From Minisyncoccales bacterium (lineage in GTDB: Bacteria; Patescibacteriota; Minisyncoccia; Minisyncoccales; RBG-13-42-11): a stretch of DNA of 34,204 bases. How positions within the stretch are numbered: position 1 is the first letter of the stretch; each line of letters begins with the position of its first letter. The position numbers were made by a program, and so were the translations under genes. Where the stretch lies: positions 1 through 34,204 of the forward strand of contig JBNAUV010000003.1 in the NCBI GenBank assembly GCA_049700655.1, written 5' to 3'. Below, piece after piece: positions 9,893 through 26,668 of the stretch. Below the pieces are notes generated by a model. That model saw only the letters and a list, made by a program, of their open reading frames with translations, did no database searches and was not told where the DNA came from.

Positions 9893-11287
9893 TTATTTCT
9901 TTTTGATAACTTTGATGTGAACTTCTTTTAATTGATTCTCTTCAACCCCTGAGGGCGCATCCATCATTAAATCGCGGTTGTCGCCAGTTTTAGGAAACGC
10001 GATTACTTCACGGATATTTGGTTCATTTAAAAGAATAGCTAAAAATCGATCAATGCCCGGCGCCATGCCGCCATGTGGCGGCACGCCATATTCAAAAGCC
10101 GATAATAAATGACCAAATTTTTTTCTAATATCTTCTTTTTTATGCCCCATTACTTCAAAAACTGATTCCAAAATTTTTGGTTGATGCGTTCTTAAACTAC
10201 CGCCGCCAATTTCATAACCATTTAAAACCAAATCATATTGATAAGCCAAAATTTTTTCCGGGTGTTTTTTGATTTCTTCCAGATTGTCGGTTTGCGGCCG
10301 GGTAAAAGGATGATGTACAGCGTCCCAGCGATTTTCTTCTTTTTTCCACTCAAACATCGGAAAATCAACAATAAAACAAAAAGCCAGCTCATCAGGATTA
10401 TTTTTATTATTTCTTAAATCCGGCTTATCGCTTTGATAATTTTTCATTGCTGTCGCATAAGAAATGCGCGGAAAAGGAATTTGTTTAATTCTCTTTTCGG
10501 GAAAGAATTTTTTTATTAAGGCGATGAAAAGGCCCTCCACTAATTTTAGAATATCTTCCTGTTCAATAAATGACATTTCTATGTCTAATTGAGTGAATTC
10601 GGCTTGTCGGTCGGCGCGCGGGTTTTCGTCGCGAAAACAGCGGGCAATTTGAAAATATTTTTCCAAACCAGCCACCATTAAAAGTTGTTTGTATTGTTGA
10701 GGAGATTGCGGTAAAGCGTAAAATTTTCCCGGTTGTAGGCGGGCTGGCACAATAAAATCGCGCGCGCCCTCGGGCGTGGCTTTGGTTAAAATTGGCGTTT
10801 CCACCTCAATAAACCCTTCATTGATTAAGAATTCTCGCATAAAATGAATGATTTTTTGTCGCCAAATGAGATTATTTTTCATTCTTTCTCTTCTCAAATC
10901 CAAATAACGGTATTTTAAACGTTTTTCTTCATTTATCTTATATCCATCATCATCAATATTAAAAGGCAAAGTTTTGGCTGAAGAAAAAATTTCCAAATTT
11001 TCAGCCACTAGTTCTACTTGACCGGTTTCAATTTTTGGATTTTGCATAGATCTTGGTCGCTCTTTAATTATTCCTTCAACGCTGATCACCCATTCTGGTC
11101 GTAATTTTTCAGCCAATTTAAAAAGTGGTTCATTTTCTCCTGAAAAAATCACCTGCAACAAACCGCTTCGATCTCTTAAATCAATAAAGAGAATTTGGCC
11201 ATGCGCTCGCCAATTGTTTACCCAACCGCAAACCTTTACTTTTTGATTAATATATTTAGTTGTTTCTTTAATTGGTATTCTTTCCAT
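9893..11287 (-). CDS. aspS: Aspartate--tRNA ligase, short form lacking the GAD insertion
   Basis: [37 protein letters not shown]; 464 aa. Confidence 0.96.
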
Positions 11288-11367: not shown

Positions 11368-11439
11368 ATTCCAACATTCTTAAGAATGTTGGAATGTTCT
11401 ATAGTTACATTATTCTAACATTCTGCAGAATGTTAGAAT
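11368..11439. repeat. Two 28-bp perfect palindromes in tandem
   Basis: ATTCCAACATTCTTAAGAATGTTGGAAT (11368-11395) and ATTCTAACATTCTGCAGAATGTTAGAAT (11412-11439). Confidence 0.92.
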
Positions 11440-11467: not shown

Positions 11468-11839
11468 TTAAGTATTTTCTAAATATTTTTTAACTTTGTC
11501 AACGATTTCTTGGGGCGTGAAGTCGGTTTTGATTAAGTAATCTTTGATGCCTAATTTTTTTGCTTTTTCGCGTTTTTCTGGATGGTCATAATTAGAAAAA
11601 GCGATCACCGGCACTGAGGCAAATTCTTTTTGGCCGCTAAACCACTCCATAAAGCCAATGCCATTCTTTTTGGGCAATAAAATGTCTAACAAAATTAAAT
11701 CCGGCTTAATTTTCGGCACCGCCTCAATCGCCTCTTCGGTAGAGCCCGCTAAAAACGCTTCAAACCCCTCTTTTCTAAACTTCTCTTGATACATCTCACC
11801 TAACATTTTTTCATCTTCAATAATTAATATTTTTTTCAT
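11468..11839 (-). CDS. Single-domain response regulator (receiver only)
   Basis: ILIIEDE, PDLILLDILLP, YLIK; no output domain. Confidence 0.93.
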   Translation of the reverse strand: MKKILIIEDEKMLGEMYQEKFRKEGFEAFLAGSTEEAIEAVPKIKPDLILLDILLPKKNGIGFMEWFSGQKEFASVPVIAFSNYDHPEKREKAKKLGIKDYLIKTDFTPQEIVDKVKKYLENT

Positions 11840-18044: not shown

Positions 18045-19001
18045 TTATTCTTTTGATTTGGTTATATTGTAAACTTCGGGGTGTTTTTCTAGAATTTGCA
18101 AATATTTCATAAATTGGTTATACATTTTTTTCTCGTGATTAATGATGCGGTCTTGATAACTTTGCTCTATATTATCTCTAATTATTTGAATGGCTTCTTC
18201 ATGATTCTTGCCGGAACGGTCTACCCAAGCCTGATATTTATCAATTAAAGTAACAATTAAATATTTATCTAAAAGTTCAAGATTTATGGCTTCAGCGGGT
18301 AAATCGCCATTAATCATGGCTGGATCATAGCCTTCTAAAGTATGATGAGAACTGGCCACAATAATTAAATCTTGAGGTATATCTTTATCGCCATATTTTT
18401 TAAGTAATTGATATGTCCAATAATCATGTTCCCGCCATAAATCTATTAACCGGTGTTTATTTAAATCTAATTTTTCTTCAATAATCGCCTTTTTCTCTTT
18501 GTAAAAAATATGTAATGTTAAGGTCTCTAAATACCTTTTAATTTCGTCCTTATTAGAAAAATTTTCAATCTCAATTGCTTCGTCAAGAGTTAATTCTCTG
18601 ATTTTTTTATTTTTAAATTTCGGATCTTGCGGGTTAAAATACTCTGTATTAAACATTTGGTTAATAATAATTTTTCTTTGTCTTTTATTTGCTTCAACCG
18701 GACCTGATTTACCAATATCATGGAATAAACAAGTCAATTTTATTTCAGAAAGGTTAAAATTTATTTTTTCTTTTTCAATATCTTCCCATAAAATTTCAAC
18801 AATTTGTTCCATTTTAACCGCATCTTCAAAGTGGGACTCTGGCAAATTGGATAATTCAACCAAACGTTCAAAAAGTTCAGGAAATTTTTCTATTTCAAAA
18901 TCAACTTCGTGAAATTTTTTAAAGACATATTCGGTGCCGGTCCGCTCTTTTGTTTCAAATTTCGCTTCTTCTTTGTTTGTAGGTATTTTTTCGTAATTCA
19001 T
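18045..19001 (-). CDS. HD-domain protein
   Basis: H...LFHDIGK...HD...SHH...D pattern. Confidence 0.7.
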   Translation of the reverse strand: MNYEKIPTNKEEAKFETKERTGTEYVFKKFHEVDFEIEKFPELFERLVELSNLPESHFEDAVKMEQIVEILWEDIEKEKINFNLSEIKLTCLFHDIGKSGPVEANKRQRKIIINQMFNTEYFNPQDPKFKNKKIRELTLDEAIEIENFSNKDEIKRYLETLTLHIFYKEKKAIIEEKLDLNKHRLIDLWREHDYWTYQLLKKYGDKDIPQDLIIVASSHHTLEGYDPAMINGDLPAEAINLELLDKYLIVTLIDKYQAWVDRSGKNHEEAIQIIRDNIEQSYQDRIINHEKKMYNQFMKYLQILEKHPEVYNITKSKE

Positions 19002-19172: not shown

Positions 19173-19208
19173 TGACACCAAATCAGGCGTAGGCATTTTT
19201 TGGTGTCA
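19173..19208. repeat. 36-bp palindromic element, copy 1
   Basis: TGACACCAAATCAGGCGTAGGCATTTTTTGGTGTCA. Confidence 0.92.
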
Positions 19209-19283
19209 TTATTATTTAAATGGTGGATAAAAAATAAAGTAAAAATAAAAGATAAAAAATAAATAAAAATAAAAGGTGAAAAT

Positions 19284-19313
19284 AAAAGGGCGACGCAGCG
19301 CGTCGCCTTTTTT
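19284..19313. terminator. Bidirectional intrinsic terminator
   Basis: GGCGACGC-AGC-GCGTCGCC with A and T tails. Confidence 0.8.
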
Positions 19314-19337
19314 AAACTTATTTAATTTTTCAAGATT

Positions 19338-19460
19338 TCAATCAAGAGGAGTCAGTCCCTCACATTCTAAAATAAATTCATAAATTTCGAATAATAATTT
19401 AATGTTTGCTGCAATTAGTTCATCGCTTTTTTTAAGCAAATCACGAACTTCTTTCTTCAT
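19338..19460 (-). CDS. Small 40-aa hypothetical protein (not in the ORF track)
   Basis: MKKEVRDLLKKSDELIAANIKLLFEIYEFILECEGLTPLD; GGAGGTG SD; ATGA overlap with the upstream gene; terminator downstream. Confidence 0.65.
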   Translation of the reverse strand: MKKEVRDLLKKSDELIAANIKLLFEIYEFILECEGLTPLD

Positions 19461-19723
19461 TTGTCACCTCCCCCTTCTGTTTTTTGTTTTTTGGTCAAAC
19501 CTTCTAATTCTAAAATTTCCACTATTACTTCCCGATTATCGGGTTTGACCAGTTTCAAATGGCCGCCCTCCATAATAGTTTTAGCCACCAAAAGTAGCAG
19601 TTTTACTGCCACGGTAGCTAAAGCAGGAATTTTTAAATTTAGTTCCTTCATCACCTGCTCGTACACTTCAATTTCCGCTTGGCCCAAACGTACTATTACC
19701 GTCAGCCGATCATCTTTTCCCAT
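19457..19723 (-). CDS. Putative ribbon-helix-helix DNA-binding protein
   Basis: Alternating strand RLTVIVRL followed by two helices; strong SD; own promoter. Confidence 0.55.
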   Translation of the reverse strand: MGKDDRLTVIVRLGQAEIEVYEQVMKELNLKIPALATVAVKLLLLVAKTIMEGGHLKLVKPDNREVIVEILELEGLTKKQKTEGGGDK

Positions 19724-19772
19724 TTTCCACCTCCTCTTGGTTTTTTTATTAAAGAACCTTGTTAGATCTTAA

Positions 19773-19801
19773 AGAATAGCAAATTCTACAAAATAAGTCA
19801 A
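19773..19801 (-). promoter_or_regulatory. Sigma70 promoter
   Basis: TTGACT-17 nt-TATTCT with TG extension. Confidence 0.65.
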
Positions 19802-19808
19802 TTAAAAT

Positions 19809-19840
19809 AAAAAGAGGTGGTGAGCTTTCACCGCCTCTTT
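19809..19840 (-). terminator. Terminator after the second ThiF gene
   Basis: AAAGAGGCGGUGA-loop-UCACCACCUCUUUUU. Confidence 0.75.
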
Positions 19841-19849
19841 GTCGCTTTA

Positions 19850-20686
19850 TTAAAGAGCATAACAAATCACTGGCTGCGGCGCTAAGATGACTTCAGCACC
19901 AGCGAGGATTTTAATTATTGTTTCCACCACTATGGCGGTTGTCAAATAAGTGGTGGTTCCCAGTTGCGGAAATGACAGTTTGCCACTCCTTATTTCCTCG
20001 CCATATTTTTTCAAAAACTCTTTTAACGCACTATTATCTGGAATCCCTTTAAGAGTTTTATTAATTAACATTTCATAAAATTCAAATCCATAAATTTTTT
20101 TACCCTCAAAGATTTCAATCAAAGATGGAGTTTGTGGCGTTAAAATCAAACAATAAGCTATCCAGCCGCAATTAAGCGGATGAAATTCAATCTTATCGTG
20201 TTTTCGTGCTGCTTCGCTAATCAACCACATTGCTTGATTAGGATCAGCCATATTAACAATAAAATCATTTCTTTCTACTGCCGCACTAATATCTTCTTGT
20301 CTGCGGAGGAACTGCGGATAAACCTCAGTCTCAGCCTCGATATTGATTTCCTGAATTTTTTTGGCAGTTACTTCTGCCTTGTTGAAACCAACATCAAGCT
20401 GATTAAAAACCTGACGATTCAGATTATGTACTTCCACCTTATCGCCATCCCAAAGTTCAAAATGGCAAAATCCAGTTCGGCTGGCTAAAACCGCAATTTG
20501 ACTGCCCAAACCGCAACCAACTAGTAAAACTCTTGCTTGTTTAATTTTTTCTTGTGTTTCTGAAGAAATTAATCCCCAATTTCTTTCATAAATTTCCATT
20601 CTTTTTTCCCTCCTTTTTTCTATTTGGGCAATTACCCGTGGCATAATTTCTGCCACAATTTCCGGTCTTCCTGCTCTTCTTTTCAT
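19850..20686 (-). CDS. ThiF/E1-like adenylyltransferase, second paralogue (alternative start 20599)
   Basis: YERNWG, VGCGLGS, DGDKVEVHNLNRQ, GFNKA. Confidence 0.88.
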   Translation of the reverse strand: MKRRAGRPEIVAEIMPRVIAQIEKRREKRMEIYERNWGLISSETQEKIKQARVLLVGCGLGSQIAVLASRTGFCHFELWDGDKVEVHNLNRQVFNQLDVGFNKAEVTAKKIQEINIEAETEVYPQFLRRQEDISAAVERNDFIVNMADPNQAMWLISEAARKHDKIEFHPLNCGWIAYCLILTPQTPSLIEIFEGKKIYGFEFYEMLINKTLKGIPDNSALKEFLKKYGEEIRSGKLSFPQLGTTTYLTTAIVVETIIKILAGAEVILAPQPVICYAL

Positions 20687-20750
20687 TTATTCCTCTATTC
20701 CTCCTTTCTTAATTTATTTTTTAAATAGCTAATTAAGATAATTATTGTAT

Positions 20751-20779
20751 ATTATACTTAAAACCAATAATTTTGTCAA
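20751..20779 (-). promoter_or_regulatory. Consensus sigma70 promoter
   Basis: TTGACA-17 nt-TATAAT. Confidence 0.8.
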
Positions 20780-20794
20780 ATAGAAATTTTAGTC

Positions 20795-22102
20795 TTAAAA
20801 ATGTTTTGACAAACTATAAATGTCGCCGGCGCCCATAATGATTAAAATATTAAAATGAGAGAAATTTTTCTGTAAATAAGATAGAATTTTATTTTTCTTT
20901 AAATAAATTACATTTTCTCTGGCTATTTTTTTGACTAATTTTTGAGCGTTAACTTTGGCTTTAATTTGCGGATTTTCTCGGCCAGCCACACTATAAATAT
21001 CAGTAATAATTACCTGATCAATTGGACAATGTTGAAAAACTTTCACAAAATCATTAAATAAATAATAGGTCCGTTGATATTGATGGGGTTGAAAAACACA
21101 CCAGATTTTTTTATCAAAATATTTCTGGCGCGCCGCTTCTAAAGTTGCTTTTATTTCAGCTGGATGATGACCATAATCGTTAATGATTTTTAATTTCAAA
21201 TTTTTAATTTTTAATTCTAGCTCTTCAAAACGGCGCCAAGCGCCTCTGTATTGGCTGAGTGTATAAAAAGTGATCTTGTTGGGAATTTTTAATAATCGAG
21301 CAATAGTTAAAACCGCTAAACTATTGGCCACATTATGTTCGCCGGGAATTTTTAAAATTTTTCTTAATTTTTTACTTTCTGGTTGGCTGAGAGAATAATT
21401 TTTTATTTTAATCGGTAATTGCACAATTTGTTTTTGTAGTTGGACAATGTCTTGGTCATCTTTATTGGCCACCAAAATACCGCTAAAAGACAAACGAGAA
21501 ATAAATTGTTTAAAAGCGTTAAAATAATTTTTAAAATTTTTATAATAATCCAAATGATCAGGGTCTAACGAAGTTAAAACAATAATATCAGGTGAATAGT
21601 TTAAAAACGAAGCGAAATGCTCGTCAGCTTCAATTACCAAAAATTGGCTTTTTCCGGCTCGATAATTACTATTGCCAAATTCTTTTAATTTTGTACCAAC
21701 AATAACTGTCGGGTCTAATTTTGCTTTAGTTAATAAAAGGCCTATCATAGCGGTAACAGTGCTTTTGCCATGTGTGCCGCAAACGGCAATAGTCAAATAA
21801 TCTTGGGTTAATTCACCTAAGGCTTGAGGATAAGAAAGAATTTTTAAATTTAATTTTTGGGCAGCTTGTAATTCTGGGTTGTTGGCTTGAACGGCTGGAC
21901 TATAGACAACCAAATCTAAATTTTTATTAAGATTGCTTTTTTTATGCCTGCCAATTAAAATTTTTGCCCCTTTTTTCTTTAATAGTTCAGTAATTTCCGA
22001 GATAACCAAATCAGAACCGCTAACTTGATGGCCTTGATTTAAATAATGTTGGGCTAAAGCAGAAACGCCAATACCGCCAATACCAATGAAATGAATACGC
22101 AT
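20795..22102 (-). CDS. murC: UDP-N-acetylmuramate--L-alanine ligase
   Basis: HFIGIGGIGVS, GTHGKST, EADE, DHLDYY, DYGHHPAEI, FQPH, MGAGD. Confidence 0.96.
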   Translation of the reverse strand: MRIHFIGIGGIGVSALAQHYLNQGHQVSGSDLVISEITELLKKKGAKILIGRHKKSNLNKNLDLVVYSPAVQANNPELQAAQKLNLKILSYPQALGELTQDYLTIAVCGTHGKSTVTAMIGLLLTKAKLDPTVIVGTKLKEFGNSNYRAGKSQFLVIEADEHFASFLNYSPDIIVLTSLDPDHLDYYKNFKNYFNAFKQFISRLSFSGILVANKDDQDIVQLQKQIVQLPIKIKNYSLSQPESKKLRKILKIPGEHNVANSLAVLTIARLLKIPNKITFYTLSQYRGAWRRFEELELKIKNLKLKIINDYGHHPAEIKATLEAARQKYFDKKIWCVFQPHQYQRTYYLFNDFVKVFQHCPIDQVIITDIYSVAGRENPQIKAKVNAQKLVKKIARENVIYLKKNKILSYLQKNFSHFNILIIMGAGDIYSLSKHF

Positions 22103-22127
22103 TTTTTTAGTTTTTAATTTTAAATTT

Positions 22128-22691
22128 TTAAACTTGTTTTAAGGGAATGCTTTCTAAAACTAAATAGTCTGGGCCAGATCTTTTCAATTGACTTTCCATC
22201 ACTTCAATTGAATTAACTTCAAAACTTAAATCAATTTCTTCATCAATAATGGGTCGTTCTTCAGGTTCAATTTGACGAAAAGCCCAGGTTTTTAACCGGC
22301 CCAAAGTAATATGAGGTAAATAATTTCGTTTCTCTTTTTCTTTAACAATTGTTTGGAAAAGGATATTCTCTAAGTTATTTTTTAAATTAGTTAAAATTGG
22401 CGATTTCTCTCCCTCAACCCAAATCATGCGTGGCGGTTTGTCAGGCGGACCATAAATAATTCTTTTTAAAGCAATTGAAAAAGGACGATATTTATTTACA
22501 ACTTCTTTAGTAATTTTTAAAAGATTTAAAATTTCTTCATCAGAAAGATAACCCAGAAAAATCAAGGTTATATGCAAATTATCTTTTTTTGTCCAACGAC
22601 AAGGCAATTCCGGCCATTTTTCTTGAAAGGAGCTTAGTTCTCTTTTTATTTCTTCAGGCAAATTTATAGCAATAAAAATTCTATGTTTCAT
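22128..22691 (-). CDS. thpR: RNA 2',3'-cyclic phosphodiesterase (2H family)
   Basis: RIFIAI and two HITL motifs. Confidence 0.92.
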   Translation of the reverse strand: MKHRIFIAINLPEEIKRELSSFQEKWPELPCRWTKKDNLHITLIFLGYLSDEEILNLLKITKEVVNKYRPFSIALKRIIYGPPDKPPRMIWVEGEKSPILTNLKNNLENILFQTIVKEKEKRNYLPHITLGRLKTWAFRQIEPEERPIIDEEIDLSFEVNSIEVMESQLKRSGPDYLVLESIPLKQV

Positions 22692-22956
22692 ATATATTAA
22701 ATTAAAAAAATTTTAACATAAAATTAACCCTAATTCAATCCAATTTAAACCCAAACCTAGGCAAATACCCAGACCTTAATACATCTAGCCCTAAACTTAA
22801 GAATCCAAACTTAAACAACTTAGAGCTTAATTAAAACACAATTAGAACACAATTAGAACCTAATAAAACCTATAGAACCTAATAAAACCTAATTAATAAT
22901 TAAAAATAAAAACTTAATCTAGTTAGTCCTTTTATTATTATTATTATTGTTATTAT

Positions 22957-22992
22957 TGACACCAAATCAGGCGTAGGCATATTTTAGTGTCA
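22957..22992. repeat. 36-bp palindromic element, copy 2
   Basis: TGACACCAAATCAGGCGTAGGCATATTTTAGTGTCA. Confidence 0.92.
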
Positions 22993-23058
22993 TCACCGCT
23001 GATTATATTAATTATATTATTTGATTATATTATTCCAATTAATCTAAATTAATCTAAA

Positions 23059-23652
23059 TTAATCTAAATTAAAATAGCGACGCAAAAATTCCTCGTTGTC
23101 AATCTCTTTTGCTCGGATTAATAAAATATAAGGTTGAATGTTAAAAATGGCTTTAATAAATTCGATTTCATTTTCACATTCATAAGGGTAGACAAAAACA
23201 CTTTTCTGAATTTTATAAAATCCCAATTCTTTAAGTTTCTCCCGCAAAACTTCCCGAGCAAGTTTCTTTTTGTTTGGAATATCAAAAATTACAATTCTCC
23301 AAATTTTATCCCATTTTTTAGGTTTTGGGATTACTAAATCTTGAAATTTATATTTTAAAACTTTTTCTTCTCCTTTTTTAGTAATTTTAATAATAGTTTC
23401 TCCATTTTTTGTTTCTTTAAATTCTATTATTCTTTGTTTCCTCATTCTTTTTAAAGCAGCTCTTAATCTTCTTTGGTCATATTTTTTCCACTCTTCAACA
23501 AGTGGCTTCGCAGCAATTAAAACTCCAGGGGCCACCATAGCTAAAGTCAAAAAAGCTCCTCCAGCTAAAGCCAATAAAACTTTCTTAGTAATTTCTTTTG
23601 TTTGTTTTACCCTTTCTGCTTGTTTAATTCTTTTTATTTGTTTTGGTTCCAT
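23059..23652 (-). CDS. PaaX-like protein with winged-helix-like region and Cas2-like domain
   Basis: ITKKG wing; WDKIWRIVIFDIP..REVLREKLKELGFYKIQKSVFVYPY; no cas1 or array nearby. Confidence 0.8.
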   Translation of the reverse strand: MEPKQIKRIKQAERVKQTKEITKKVLLALAGGAFLTLAMVAPGVLIAAKPLVEEWKKYDQRRLRAALKRMRKQRIIEFKETKNGETIIKITKKGEEKVLKYKFQDLVIPKPKKWDKIWRIVIFDIPNKKKLAREVLREKLKELGFYKIQKSVFVYPYECENEIEFIKAIFNIQPYILLIRAKEIDNEEFLRRYFNLD

Positions 23653-23699
23653 TGATTTTGTTTTGGTTCCATTGATTTTGTTTTGGTTCCATTGATTTT
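23641..23699 (-). repeat. 20-bp tandem repeat x3 containing the start codon
   Basis: TTTTGGTTCCATTGATTTTG x3. Confidence 0.95.
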
Positions 23700-23722
23700 A
23701 TTCTAACAACTTTTTTTCTACT

Positions 23723-23758
23723 TGACAACAAATTAGGCGTAGGCTTTTTTTGGTGTCA
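23723..23758. repeat. 36-bp palindromic element, copy 3
   Basis: TGACAACAAATTAGGCGTAGGCTTTTTTTGGTGTCA. Confidence 0.9.
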
Positions 23759-24141
23759 GATTTGTTTTTTTGTTATTTTTTTAAATTTTTAAAATGTTAT
23801 AGATTAAGTTAAATAAAATTAAGTTAATGTTGTAAAATTAAGTTAAAATGTTGTAAAATTAATTAAAGGGAAGATTGATAAGCCATCCGGGGTCTTTCTT
23901 TGGTGTTTCAACTCTATCTTTAGAAACTTCATTAGCGCTAAAATCAGTTCGTTTCCAAGTGAAAGATTCTTTCTCTAAAATGTCTACCGATTCAGAAGCA
24001 CCAACTCGGGCTATTGCACCTAAATATACGTATTGCACCTAAATATACAAAGTATTTAAATATAAAGGCAGAATTATTGTAAAATAAAAGTAATAAAAAA
24101 AGAGATAAGTTAAAAAATAAAAAAGAGATAAATTTAGAAAG

Positions 24142-25194
24142 ATGATCGAGGCGCTTTTATATAAAAAACTAAAGAGAAAAAAGGTTGTTTCGTCCCGAGA
24201 TAGGGTTTCTGGTGTTATGATCCAATGTCAAAATTGCGGCCATTATTGTCGAATTGCACTGGGAAAAAGAGGTATTTGCGGGGTTCGCGAAAATATTAAT
24301 GGCAAGTTATATGCCTTAAATTATGGCAAATTAGCAGCTATTAATATTGATCCTATCGAAAAAAAGCCTTTTTATCATTTTTTACCAGGCAGCCGCTCTT
24401 TATCAATTGCCACAGTGGGTTGTAATTTTGTGTGCAAAAATTGCCAAAATTTTGATATTTCTCAAGCGCCCAAGCCAAATAAACCAATTACTGGTGAAGA
24501 ATTATCGCCAGAACAGATCGTTGAAACTGCTATTAAAAATAACCTGCCCAGCATTTCTTACACTTATGTAGAACCAACCATTTTTTTAGAATATGCTTTG
24601 GAAACTATGAAATTGGCTAAAAAGGCTGGTTTAAAAAACAATTGGGTGTCTAATGGTTTTATGTCAAAAGAATCAGCGAAATTAGTTATCCCCTATTTAG
24701 ACGCTAATAATATTGATATTAAAAGTTTTGATGACAAATTTTATCAAGAAAATTGCGGCGGCCGGCTTCAACCGGTTTTAGATACAGCAAAATTAATGAA
24801 AAAATCTGGTGTTTGGGTGGAAATTACAACTTTGGTTATCCCAACCTTAAGCGATTCAAAAGAGATGTTTAGAAAAATTGCTGAATTTATTTATAACGAA
24901 TTAGGGCCTGAAACTCCTTGGCATATTTCTCAATTCTGTGGCACGATTTCTTGGAAACTTCAACATTTGCCTGATACGCCAGTTGAAACACTACAAATGG
25001 GTTATAAAATTGGCAAAGAAACTGGTCTAAAATATGTTTACACCGGCAACGTGCCAGGCTTGCGTTCTGAAGATACTTTTTGCCCAAAATGCAACACTTT
25101 GTGTATTAACCGTTTTGGTTACTCAATAAACAGATATGATAAAAATGGCCAATGTCCAAAATGCGGCACCTTTTTAAATCTTATATTAAATTAA
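24142..25194 (+). CDS. amrS: AmmeMemoRadiSam system radical SAM enzyme
   Basis: CxxCxxxC..GICGVR, DPIEKKP, CNFVCKNCQN, YTYVEP, C-terminal CPKC pairs. Confidence 0.92.
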   Translation: MIEALLYKKLKRKKVVSSRDRVSGVMIQCQNCGHYCRIALGKRGICGVRENINGKLYALNYGKLAAINIDPIEKKPFYHFLPGSRSLSIATVGCNFVCKNCQNFDISQAPKPNKPITGEELSPEQIVETAIKNNLPSISYTYVEPTIFLEYALETMKLAKKAGLKNNWVSNGFMSKESAKLVIPYLDANNIDIKSFDDKFYQENCGGRLQPVLDTAKLMKKSGVWVEITTLVIPTLSDSKEMFRKIAEFIYNELGPETPWHISQFCGTISWKLQHLPDTPVETLQMGYKIGKETGLKYVYTGNVPGLRSEDTFCPKCNTLCINRFGYSINRYDKNGQCPKCGTFLNLILN

Positions 25195-25203
25195 AAACAA
25201 ACC

Positions 25204-25239
25204 TGACCACTTATTTTGCCATGGCAAAATAATGCGTCA
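25204..25239. repeat. 36-bp palindrome with TGAC...GTCA ends
   Basis: TGACCAC-TTATTTTGCCATGGCAAAATAA-TGCGTCA. Confidence 0.75.
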
Positions 25240-25279
25240 CAATTATTCAAAAAAATAAAATAAAAAATAAACTTAAATT

Positions 25280-25897
25280 ATGATAGTTTTTGCTTGTATT
25301 TCACCTCATCCGCCCATAATTTTACCTGAGGTTGGTTCGTCGGAAGATAGGGCTCAGGTTAAAAATACAATTGAGGCGTTAGAAAAATTAGGCGAGAAAT
25401 TAAAAGAATTAAAGCCTGATAAAATAATTATTTCTGCTCCTCATCAGGACTGGGGATTTAATGTACCACTTTTCTTTTTAGCCAAAGATTTTGAACAGGA
25501 AATTGAACAACATCTCATTGGCTTAGAATCGCCTCAATTTTATTTTGAAAAAGGAAAAGAAGTTTATTTAAAAATTAAAAATTTAAAATTAAAAATTGCC
25601 CTCATCGCCAGTGGCGATTTGTCTCATTGTCTAAAGCCGGATGGTCCTTATGGATTCCATCCTGACGGTCCAAAGTTTGATCAGGAATTTATTGAGGCTC
25701 TAAAGAAAAAAGATGTTGAAAGAATTTTGAAATTAGATGAATTGTATCCCGATGCTGGCGAATGCGGCCTGAGATCTTTTTGTTTCTTTTTGGGAATTTT
25801 AGAGGCCTCTGGGATAAATTATCAACCCGAAATTTTGTCCTACGAAGGCCCTTTTGGCGTCGGCTATTTAGTGGCAAATTTTAGATTAAGTCGATGA
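25280..25897 (+). CDS. AmmeMemoRadiSam protein B (Memo/LigB-like), short form
   Basis: PHPP, SAPH, ASGDLSH, AGECG, YEGPFGVGY. Confidence 0.85.
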   Translation: MIVFACISPHPPIILPEVGSSEDRAQVKNTIEALEKLGEKLKELKPDKIIISAPHQDWGFNVPLFFLAKDFEQEIEQHLIGLESPQFYFEKGKEVYLKIKNLKLKIALIASGDLSHCLKPDGPYGFHPDGPKFDQEFIEALKKKDVERILKLDELYPDAGECGLRSFCFFLGILEASGINYQPEILSYEGPFGVGYLVANFRLSR

Positions 25898-25945
25898 GAT
25901 AAATCTCATCTTCATCTTCGTTTTCGCTACGTGAAAACTCGATAA

Positions 25946-26668
25946 ATGAACTTAATTGAAATAAAAAACGCTCAAAAAATTATCTTTGTTGGCGATACTC
26001 ATGGCGATTGGGAAGCGAGCCAAAAAGTGATTAAGGATTATTTAAAGAAAGGAAGCAAAATTGTTTTTTTGGGAGATTATGTTGATCGAGGGCCTTATTC
26101 GAAAGAAAATTTAGATTTTTTACTAAAAACCAAAGAAAAAAATCCAGATCAAATTTATTTATTACAAGGAAATCATGAAGGGTATAGAATTCTACCATTT
26201 TCTCCAGCCGAATTCTGGCAAAGTTTAAACAATATAGATTATCAAAAATATTGTTTAATTGTTGAAAAATTTCCTTTGGTGGCAATGGCCAAAGATATTA
26301 TAGCGGCTCACGGAGCCTTGCCTAATATAGAAAACTTAGAAGAGATAAATCAAATAAAAATTGGCGATGAAATGTGGCGGACTATCGCTTGGGGCGACTT
26401 TCTTGATGAGCCGGGAGAAAATTTGGGTATCGATTTTTTTACCGGTCGACCACAATTTGGCGAAGATTATTTTTTAAAACTAATGAAAAGATTTAATAAA
26501 AAAGTTTTCATTCGTTCTCACCAACCCGATGCCCCCCAATTTATGTTTAATGATCGTTGTTTAACTATTTTCACTTCTATGGCCTATAGACGCGAGCGAA
26601 CCATTGCTATTTATGACTGCAGAAAACCAATAAAAACTGCCAAAGATTTAGAGATTATTAAAATTTAA
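25946..26668 (+). CDS. Calcineurin-like metallophosphoesterase (PPP type)
   Basis: GDTHG, GDYVDRG, GNHE, HG, RSH. Confidence 0.9.
   Translation: MNLIEIKNAQKIIFVGDTHGDWEASQKVIKDYLKKGSKIVFLGDYVDRGPYSKENLDFLLKTKEKNPDQIYLLQGNHEGYRILPFSPAEFWQSLNNIDYQKYCLIVEKFPLVAMAKDIIAAHGALPNIENLEEINQIKIGDEMWRTIAWGDFLDEPGENLGIDFFTGRPQFGEDYFLKLMKRFNKKVFIRSHQPDAPQFMFNDRCLTIFTSMAYRRERTIAIYDCRKPIKTAKDLEIIKI

Follow-up and report, generated by a model that had tools for sequence, protein, structure and literature searches.

The stretch of DNA analysed here (the window) comprises 34,204 nucleotides and constitutes contig C3 of a Minisyncoccales genome (assembly GCA_049700655.1, contig JBNAUV010000003.1; genome label G000), which amounts to 538,623 bp in 30 contigs with a completeness score of 100%. 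Its central feature is a short gene, "mini-PaaX", which encodes the protein P0001 and is bracketed by two copies of a 36-nucleotide (nt) palindromic element. LigT-like, MurC-like, ThiF, HD-domain and radical-SAM genes make up the neighbourhood, and no paa catabolic genes lie nearby. Searching the window with the 36-mer of copy 1 returned three matches, all on the forward strand, with 0, 2 and 3 mismatches, and 0 of 100 shuffled sequences gave a match. An earlier, sequence-only reading of the window had reported three copies in the same orientation, two of them 66 bp downstream and 70 bp upstream of the mini-PaaX open reading frame (ORF) and one upstream of the HD-domain gene, and all of this is borne out, the last distance being 171 bp from the gene start at 19001. 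The consensus written at the time fared less well, since it had 35 letters, one T short, and as a 35-nt pattern matched nothing. Copy 1 lies beyond the canonical terminator of the preceding genes, and copy 2 is found 66 bp past the mini-PaaX stop codon; it lies upstream of the LigT-like gene, 265 bp from that gene's start (22691). The spacing between copies in the window is 3.7 kb and 0.73 kb. Scanning the whole source genome for the element, with up to 8 substitutions tolerated, yielded exactly 4 copies; the earlier count of three holds for the window, but a fourth copy resides on a different contig (C1).

The 10-nt core AGGCGTAGGC is identical across the copies, and the arms pair at 10/10 positions in copy 1 and at 9/10 in copies 2 and 3. 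The outer layout of copy 1 is TGACAC-N24-GTGTCA, a pair of widely spaced inverted hexamers. The core had been described as conserved and asymmetric; its conservation stands, and the asymmetry resolves into a GC-NNNN-GC dyad with one mismatch, its halves being GCCT and GCGT. With respect to local transcription the copies have no fixed orientation: copy 4 runs in the sense direction, and copies 1-3 run antisense to the genes beside them. Copy 4 ends 3 nt ahead of the ATG of a MiaB/RimO-like radical-SAM gene in the same orientation, and the sole Shine-Dalgarno-like GGTG of this gene sits within the 3' arm of the copy; binding of a protein or formation of a hairpin would therefore be expected to affect its translation. 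The motif, at up to 3 mismatches, was absent from the 60 relatives searched, and on this sequence comparison the 36-nt sequence itself is lineage-specific. Four metagenome stretches that match the core pattern were dismissed as chance hits, since the arms are absent and there is no similarity to the source genome.

Table 1. Positions of the features discussed in the text; coordinates refer to the window unless a contig (C) or a locus of a relative (L) is named.
Feature	Position	Strand	Remarks
Copy 1 (solo site)	19173-19208	+	0 mismatches; reference 36-mer
Copy 2	22957-22992	+	2 mismatches to copy 1
Copy 3	23723-23758	+	3 mismatches to copy 1; 70 bp before mini-PaaX start; proposed autoregulatory operator
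Copy 4 (solo site)	C1:54530-54565 (= L001 6531-6566)	-	identical to copy 3
Mini-PaaX gene (P0001, 197 aa)	23059..23652	-	ORF between copies 2 and 3
Promoter-like match TTGTCA-17-TAGAAT	23700..23728	-	10/12 consensus positions, TG before -10; faces mini-PaaX
Inserted interval, LigT-like start to radical-SAM start	22692..24141	.	1450 bp; site-gene-site plus AT-rich tandem repeats
Short tandem repeats in inserted interval	22830-22880, 23040-23075, 23640-23700, 23790-23860, 24010-24045
HD-domain gene	18045..19001	-
Canonical terminator	19289-19307
Radical-SAM gene, LigB/Memo-like gene, third ORF	24142-26668		named from Pfam domains
Third mini-PaaX paralogue	C18:5571-6126 (L016 1495-2056)	-	frameshift in A-rich run
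Sigma-70 gene in relatives' LigT/radical-SAM gap	L148 (G023) 558-1403; L149 (G012) 2574-3578		split into two ORFs in L148
Fourth-family palindromes	6463-6494, 7328-7359; C15:48-79, 1172-1203, 6310-6341, 10116-10147; C17:9047-9078
PP-loop-like protein gene (428 aa)	6502..7788	-
Paired perfect 28-bp palindromes	11368-11395, 11412-11439		16 bp apart; centres TTAA and TGCA
Receiver gene of a response regulator	11468..11839	-
Gene on far side of 28-bp palindromes	9893..11287	-
Y1_Tnp genes, IS200/RAYT type	C6:7414-7752, C2:9153-9458, C8:27255-27494
Recurrence of palindrome near C8 Y1_Tnp gene	C21:7875-7904

P0001 joins a PaaX-type winged helix (approximately residues 42-104) to a Cas2-fold domain (approximately residues 112-193). 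In Pfam, PaaX_M (PF20803), the Cas2-like central domain of PaaX, matches with an E-value of 5.1e-22 and 78.2 bits against a cut-off of 24, and CRISPR_Cas2 is a borderline match (4.9e-05, 23.9 bits against a cut-off of 23.8). In NCBIfam, the Cas2 model scores 28.3 against 24.5 and the PaaX equivalog (TIGR02277) reaches 34.4 bits against a cut-off of 264.55, covering only model positions 32-147 of 279. The chain stops after the Cas2-like domain and lacks the C-terminal PaaX effector (phenylacetyl-CoA) domain. Judged by these family matches, P0001 is a "mini-PaaX", a name chosen because the winged helix and the Cas2 fold are present and the effector domain is absent. An AlphaFold model with a predicted local distance difference test (pLDDT) of 77.6 found E. 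coli PaaX (8a39, 184 columns) as its top Foldseek match in the PDB, followed by many Cas2 structures that cover the C-terminal half; a homodimer prediction scored 0.12 against a mark of 0.42, a value that weighs neither way. In an alignment of 11 homologues, a W-D..W-R..F-D-I block is invariant, as is D124, which aligns with the beta-1 Asp of Cas2, and the Q-x-S-V/A motif of mini-PaaX likewise aligns with Cas2. All homologues checked also match PaaX_M. A scan of one genome per species returned at least 599 homologous stretches, at least 587 of them confirmed, and the best 80, which were used for the flank tests below, all stem from Patescibacteria-type assemblies or bins so labelled. As far as searched, the family is confined to Patescibacteria-type genomes, and it is patchily distributed there: in a phylum-wide sample, 74/301 genomes have matches, with 1-10 copies each and several copies carrying internal stops.

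The bracketing of the gene by palindromes is general. Among 26 genomes of the same family, 7 contain mini-PaaX homologues at 12 loci, 3 of which belong to the source genome, and 12/12 loci feature a palindrome of their own on both flanks, roughly 5-90 bp from the gene ends; at one of them (L011), in AT-rich sequence, the palindromes were recognised by eye only. The palindrome sequences differ from gene to gene, and so do the neighbouring genes. The sequence-only reading had suggested checking other PaaX/Cas2-like genes of the Candidate Phyla Radiation (CPR) for flanking palindromes of their own, and the outcome is positive, also beyond the family. We scored the best ungapped segment common to the 200-bp upstream and downstream flanks: 79/80 further loci had usable flanks and gave a median of 16, 300 mismatched pairs of upstream and downstream flanks scored 9 in the median and 16 at most, and 46/79 loci exceeded the 99th percentile of this null. 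A score of at least 15 was reached by 42/74 mini-PaaX genes versus 6/245 neighbouring ORFs. Across the whole set of 92 genes, dyad calling under stricter rules assigned sites to both flanks of 37 genes, to one flank of 41 and to neither flank of 14. The pairing is specific for the individual paralogue: in a genome with 7 paralogues (6 testable), each upstream site agrees with its own downstream site at 27-30/36 positions and with those of the other paralogues at 9-24. In the source genome, the palindrome of the paralogue on contig C4 occurs in 2 copies, found only on its own two flanks. The third paralogue, on contig C18, is flanked by its own palindromes once the true gene ends are used, with the centres CCTAGG and CGTAGG; its frameshift could reflect a pseudogene or an assembly error.

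The sites follow a common plan: the GC-NNNN-GC centre is semi-conserved, the spacer is rich in A/T, and the outer arms vary. In relatives they form perfect palindromes that measure 20-52 bp, with a median of 38-40 bp. The central hexamer is self-complementary in 60/94 even-length sites, compared with 1/64 expected by chance, a comparison in which the choice of sites somewhat favours symmetric candidates; the commonest hexamers among these 94 sites are CGATCG (33), CTATAG (9) and CCATGG (4). Since central symmetry is dispensable for the loop of a hairpin and is needed by a protein of two-fold symmetry that sits on duplex DNA, the elements look like double-stranded, dyad-symmetric sites rather than hairpin sites, as far as their sequences tell. 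This symmetry far above chance also bears on the idea of an RNA-level role, in which the palindromes would be transcribed and form hairpins at both ends of the mRNA, serving as terminators, as stabilisers or as targets for the Cas2 fold. A transcript could indeed include both flanking copies, many solo copies lie 14-66 bp past stop codons, and in copy 4 the GGTG, located 6 nt ahead of the start codon of the MiaB-like gene, would be paired within the stem. Yet a T-run follows 3/44 downstream sites against a background of 11.9%, a terminator scan called no terminator-like structure at the sites near mini-PaaX, though it did call the nearby canonical terminator, a search of the window against Rfam matched no family, and orientation relative to transcription is not conserved. 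We consider an RNA-level function very unlikely.

Residues of the Cas2-fold domain co-vary with the bases at the centre of the sites. Every alignment column of 76 distinct proteins was compared with each of 20 half-site positions, and the top three residue-base pairs reached z 16.3, 14.3 and 10.3, the next one 6.3; all three residues belong to the Cas2-fold domain and all three bases to the site centre. In P0001 numbering, residue 150 goes with base 1 from the dyad (K/R with A/T in 57/57 cases, E/N/Q with G/C in 8/8), residue 127 with base 2 (E with G in 40/45, Q with C in 3/3), and residue 134 with base 4 (E with G in 26/26, R with C in 5/5, D with G in 12 cases or A in 14). Phylogenetically independent pairs, drawn from a tree built with columns 127, 134 and 150 left out, changed in the same direction 6 times for residue 150 and base 1, with no opposite change and no case of no change (p 0.031). 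For residue 127 and base 2, 8 pairs gave about 5.4 changes in the same direction, 0 opposite and 2.6 without change (median p 0.031), and for R/K/Q at residue 134 and C at base 4 there were 4 changes in the same direction, 0 opposite and 0 without change (p 0.125), 4 pairs being too few for this sign test to reach 0.05. The code would be chemically sensible if each residue contacts the base or its partner (Arg-G, Glu-C). P0001 itself features N127, E134 and K150; relatives with this combination have GC(A/C)T centres, in line with the GCCT on one half of the window sites.

Because homologues have their own flanking pairs and because residues co-vary with site bases, it is strongly supported, at the level of sequence comparison, that the adjacent protein is the partner of the palindromes and recognises them. 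Together with the central dyad, these two observations would make the elements cognate double-stranded sites rather than repeats of the clustered regularly interspaced short palindromic type (CRISPR). The hint at CRISPR in the sequence-only reading drew on the repeat length of 36 nt; the Cas2 homologue next to the repeats and its weak Cas2 family matches in Pfam and NCBIfam go with it. A remnant or minimal CRISPR-like locus is nonetheless hardly credible, because there is no array, the "spacer" being the 730-bp gene itself, and no Cas1: PF01867 found 0 matches in the 100%-complete genome, and the control search was positive in 7/14 known genomes. Further points against such a locus are the nature of P0001 as a PaaX-type fusion and the relatives' sites, perfect palindromes that vary in length.

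The unit of site, gene and site has been inserted into a conserved gene order, which in relatives runs MurC - LigT / radical SAM - LigB/Memo. The loci of 17 relatives were returned, and 16 show both the LigT and the radical-SAM gene. In 13/16, these genes are divergent neighbours separated by a gap of 76-218 bp, with no palindrome and no mini-PaaX; the other 3/16 comprise one gap of 352 bp and two of about 1.2 kb with a sigma-70 gene. The comparison shows that the site-gene-site unit is a lineage-specific insertion between the LigT-like and radical-SAM genes. Empty sites in relatives, which the sequence-only reading had suggested looking for in the form of one copy without the gene, do exist, but they hold no palindrome at all. 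Since two relatives have a sigma-70 gene in the gap instead, regulator genes seem to land there preferentially. Among the tandem repeats of the inserted interval, one consists of a 20-bp unit repeated three times, which contains the mini-PaaX start codon and thereby yields three ATGs in different frames. The radical-SAM gene on the far side of the interval is followed by a LigB/Memo-like gene and a third ORF, a group that resembles an AmmeMemoRadiSam-type cluster. For the C4 paralogue, no clean empty site could be defined: LemA-HtpX is kept in 17 relatives, 0 of them with a mini-PaaX gene after it, and the far neighbour is not conserved.

An inserted cassette with a repeat at either end could be a recombination unit, in which flanking direct repeats serve as attachment (att)-like sites, the gene excises as a circle and re-enters at solo copies through a host recombinase or RecA, and mini-PaaX acts as an accessory or directionality factor. 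In keeping with this, the window pair is in direct orientation, asymmetric sites are mostly direct (direct versus inverted score 20 vs 7, 26 vs 11 and 32 vs 14), and solo copies exist. Some pairs are inverted, however (18 vs 8, 22 vs 13 and 24 vs 17), the inserted interval of 1450 bp far exceeds the site-to-site length of 802 bp, and the empty sites are devoid of palindromes. Moreover, one host recombinase cannot serve all paralogues, because each of them has a different site. Recombination of this kind thus appears quite improbable.

The best explanation overall, to which we give slightly better than even credence, is that the 36-nt elements are dyad-symmetric duplex sites of the mini-PaaX protein encoded between two of them, and that gene and sites form an autorepressing accessory cassette. 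Mini-PaaX would bind each palindrome as a two-fold symmetric dimer on duplex DNA. The Cas2-fold pair would lie over the GC-NNNN-GC centre, where residues 150, 127 and 134 would read bases 1, 2 and 4, as the covariation suggests, and the winged helices would sit on the outer arms of 10 bp, an arrangement modelled on E. coli PaaX and its operator TGATTC-N27-GAATCA. Site, gene and site would make up a self-contained accessory cassette, placed between the LigT-like and radical-SAM genes. Autorepression is likely, since copy 3 overlaps the -35 region of the best promoter-like match: the -35 hexamer corresponds to the last 6 nt of copy 3 on the reverse strand. With the upstream site over the -35 of its likely promoter, mini-PaaX would shut off its own expression. 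Copies 1, 2 and 4 would provide additional binding sites for the protein. The flanking pair might bracket the cassette as a roadblock or insulator against transcription coming from the neighbours, or by looping; this is our best guess and the most tentative step of the scheme.

An operator role had been proposed in the sequence-only reading, together with the caveat that the downstream copy fits it poorly. For copy 3 the proposal gains from the promoter overlap and from the analogy to E. coli PaaX, and the caveat holds as well: the downstream neighbour is convergent in 27/74 loci with a called downstream ORF (6/80 loci are without one), so that the second flanking copy is not simply the operator of the next gene. 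The downstream and solo copies may be roadblocks, insulators or the result of a spread resembling that of repetitive extragenic palindromic (REP) elements by REP-associated tyrosine transposases (RAYTs).

Several observations weigh against an autorepressing cassette. Promoter-like matches near copy 3 are not above those in shuffled sequences (12 vs 8.6 +/- 2.7), so the promoter match carries little weight, and DNA binding by mini-PaaX is itself deduced from sequence. The signals of covariation between winged helix and arms are weak (best z 5.8), which is why the winged helices are placed on the arms by the E. coli precedent. The invariant D124 leaves room, as a sequence feature, for catalysis beyond binding. 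Three genomes provided 14 solo sites, the majority of them located between co-directional genes, with 4 between convergent and 1 between divergent genes; many follow shortly upon a stop codon. The solo copies are not tied to promoters, and their neighbours are unrelated housekeeping genes. A common functional theme beside solo sites was sought in two other genomes, and none was found. Given these contexts and neighbours, the solo copies are not a conserved regulon and not all of them are promoter operators. The C4 palindrome occurs on its own flanks only, and as a regulator the C4 paralogue would consequently be without a regulon. Finally, 32/36 positions are invariant across the 10 copies of one genome described below, which is tighter than in usual operators and resembles young repeats.

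The genome in question (G061), a single contig of 840,672 bp, contains its cognate 36-mer 10 times, with variation at only 4/36 positions, and another genome (G006) contains 8 copies of its cognate site. All these copies are intergenic; they are alike up to the palindrome edge and no further, their flanks being unrelated, and no target-site duplication was seen. Such dispersed copies lend some appeal to a REP/RAYT-like selfish or domesticated system, in which mini-PaaX would use the active site of its Cas2 fold to cut at the middle of the dyad and would mobilise or maintain the palindromes, the solo copies being non-autonomous offspring. The sequence-only reading had named a REP/RAYT-like element as its other option, and the gene-specific flanks and dispersed solo copies accord with it. 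As summarised for RAYTs (PMC3337134), a short gene is flanked by repeats and each paralogue has one repeat family. The patchy distribution of the gene, its internal stops in some genomes, the insertion of the cassette, the invariant Asp that matches the beta-1 Asp of Cas2 and a fourth palindrome family that occurs even in-frame within two ORFs point the same way. On the other side, P0001 has no match to Y1_Tnp (HUH/Y1) in Pfam, and the three Y1_Tnp genes of the genome are not beside mini-PaaX palindromes. Copy numbers are 2-10 rather than hundreds (4 and 2 in the source genome), the symmetry through the centre indicates recognition of a duplex rather than a hairpin, and target-site duplications are missing from the copies inspected. 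The pattern of four variable and otherwise fixed positions in G061 argues, from sequence, that the copies have been kept by selection for binding rather than by recent copying. All in all, we find a REP/RAYT-like system doubtful, though less so than the alternatives above.

The fourth palindrome family, with the centre CGCGATCGCG, occurs in 7 copies in the source genome. A PF20803 search found three loci only, and no cognate mini-PaaX gene for this family is present in the assembly. Two of its copies are in-frame inside ORFs and both encode the peptide KNYAIA, one in the linker of the PP-loop-like protein and one in a 194-aa DeoR-HTH protein on contig C15. The copy at 7328-7359 was considered as a clean insertion and rejected, since at this point the window protein exceeds its homologues by just 5 residues, within a linker of variable sequence. 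As to the Y1_Tnp genes, that on contig C8 has a GC-rich perfect palindrome of 36 bp about 400 bp away, which recurs elsewhere in the genome. Two further perfect palindromes in the window, of 28 bp and with nearly the same arms, lie between the receiver gene of a response regulator and the next gene on the same strand.

A bolder possibility is that mini-PaaX represents a new class of site-specific Cas2-fold enzymes, which would cut or nick at the dyad and would spread and maintain their own palindromes along with the site-gene-site cassette. We deem this speculative and rather unlikely. Such an enzyme would form a REP/RAYT-like or homing-like selfish system, with residues 127, 134 and 150 specifying the centre and the winged helix specifying the arms, and it might be related to the ancestor that gave CRISPR adaptation its Cas2. 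Returning to the preferred autorepressing cassette, its patchy occurrence, the palindromes on either side and the clean insertion where relatives have an empty site hint at a small unit, mobile or selfish, for which we found no earlier description.

In the Patescibacteria (CPR), recognisable regulators are very scarce and experimental genetics hardly exists; the Cas2-fold domain, for its part, is usually regarded as a dimerisation or scaffold module. Against this background, the mini-PaaX family occurs in about a quarter of the sampled genomes, in up to 10 copies, with a predicted site beside the gene on both flanks. The hundreds of natural protein-site pairs yield a testable code, in which the Cas2 fold appears to read bases, and they raise the question of why a DNA-binding protein brackets its own gene. 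If the code holds, mini-PaaX proteins could be used as orthogonal binders of long DNA sites (36-46 bp).

Among known systems, E. coli PaaX is closest in kind. As summarised in PMC9493321, its operator is TGATTC(N27)GAATCA and it represses its own promoter; like mini-PaaX it has a Cas2-like central domain behind the winged helix, and it shares the layout of widely spaced inverted hexamers. Unlike it, mini-PaaX has no effector domain and no paa genes nearby, its sites lie on both sides of the gene, and the site centre is conserved and co-varies with Cas2-fold residues. RAYTs are relatives of HUH/Y1 transposases that act on single-strand hairpins, with tens to hundreds of REPs. In outline (PMC3337134), the RAYT gene is short and has flanking palindromic repeats of a paralogue-specific family, and the extra copies of mini-PaaX sites resemble the REP/REPIN-RAYT systems in being dispersed in intergenic DNA. 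In contrast, mini-PaaX pairs a winged helix with a Cas2 fold, and its 2-10 sites are symmetric through the centre. The immunity region of phage lambda also has a repressor gene between its own operator sets. There, cI lies between OL and OR, operators that cooperate by looping and control the outward early phage promoters. For mini-PaaX, by comparison, no relative was found in the viral contigs searched, and many downstream neighbours are convergent.

Cas2 has the same fold as the second half of mini-PaaX, and the two align at the beta-1 Asp as well as at the Q-x-S-V/A motif. In the Cas1-Cas2 integrase, Cas2 dimers lie on the central prespacer duplex, and we know of no Cas2 that reads sequence; mini-PaaX differs in being fused to a winged helix and in lacking both Cas1 and an array. 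The solved sequences nearest to the winged-helix part of P0001 are AspA chains, a weak match (E 0.001) over about 50 residues. Winged-helix proteins of the AspA/TubR type bind palindromic sites near their own genes, whereas mini-PaaX has no partition ATPase nearby and up to 10 paralogues per chromosome. In a literature survey conducted mostly at the level of abstracts, neither palindrome-bracketed PaaX-like genes nor REP-like elements in the CPR were found described. A PaaX-type pair of protein and operator is known in kind, and what appears new is the layout in which sites bracket the gene, the behaviour as a cassette and a Cas2 fold that appears to read bases.

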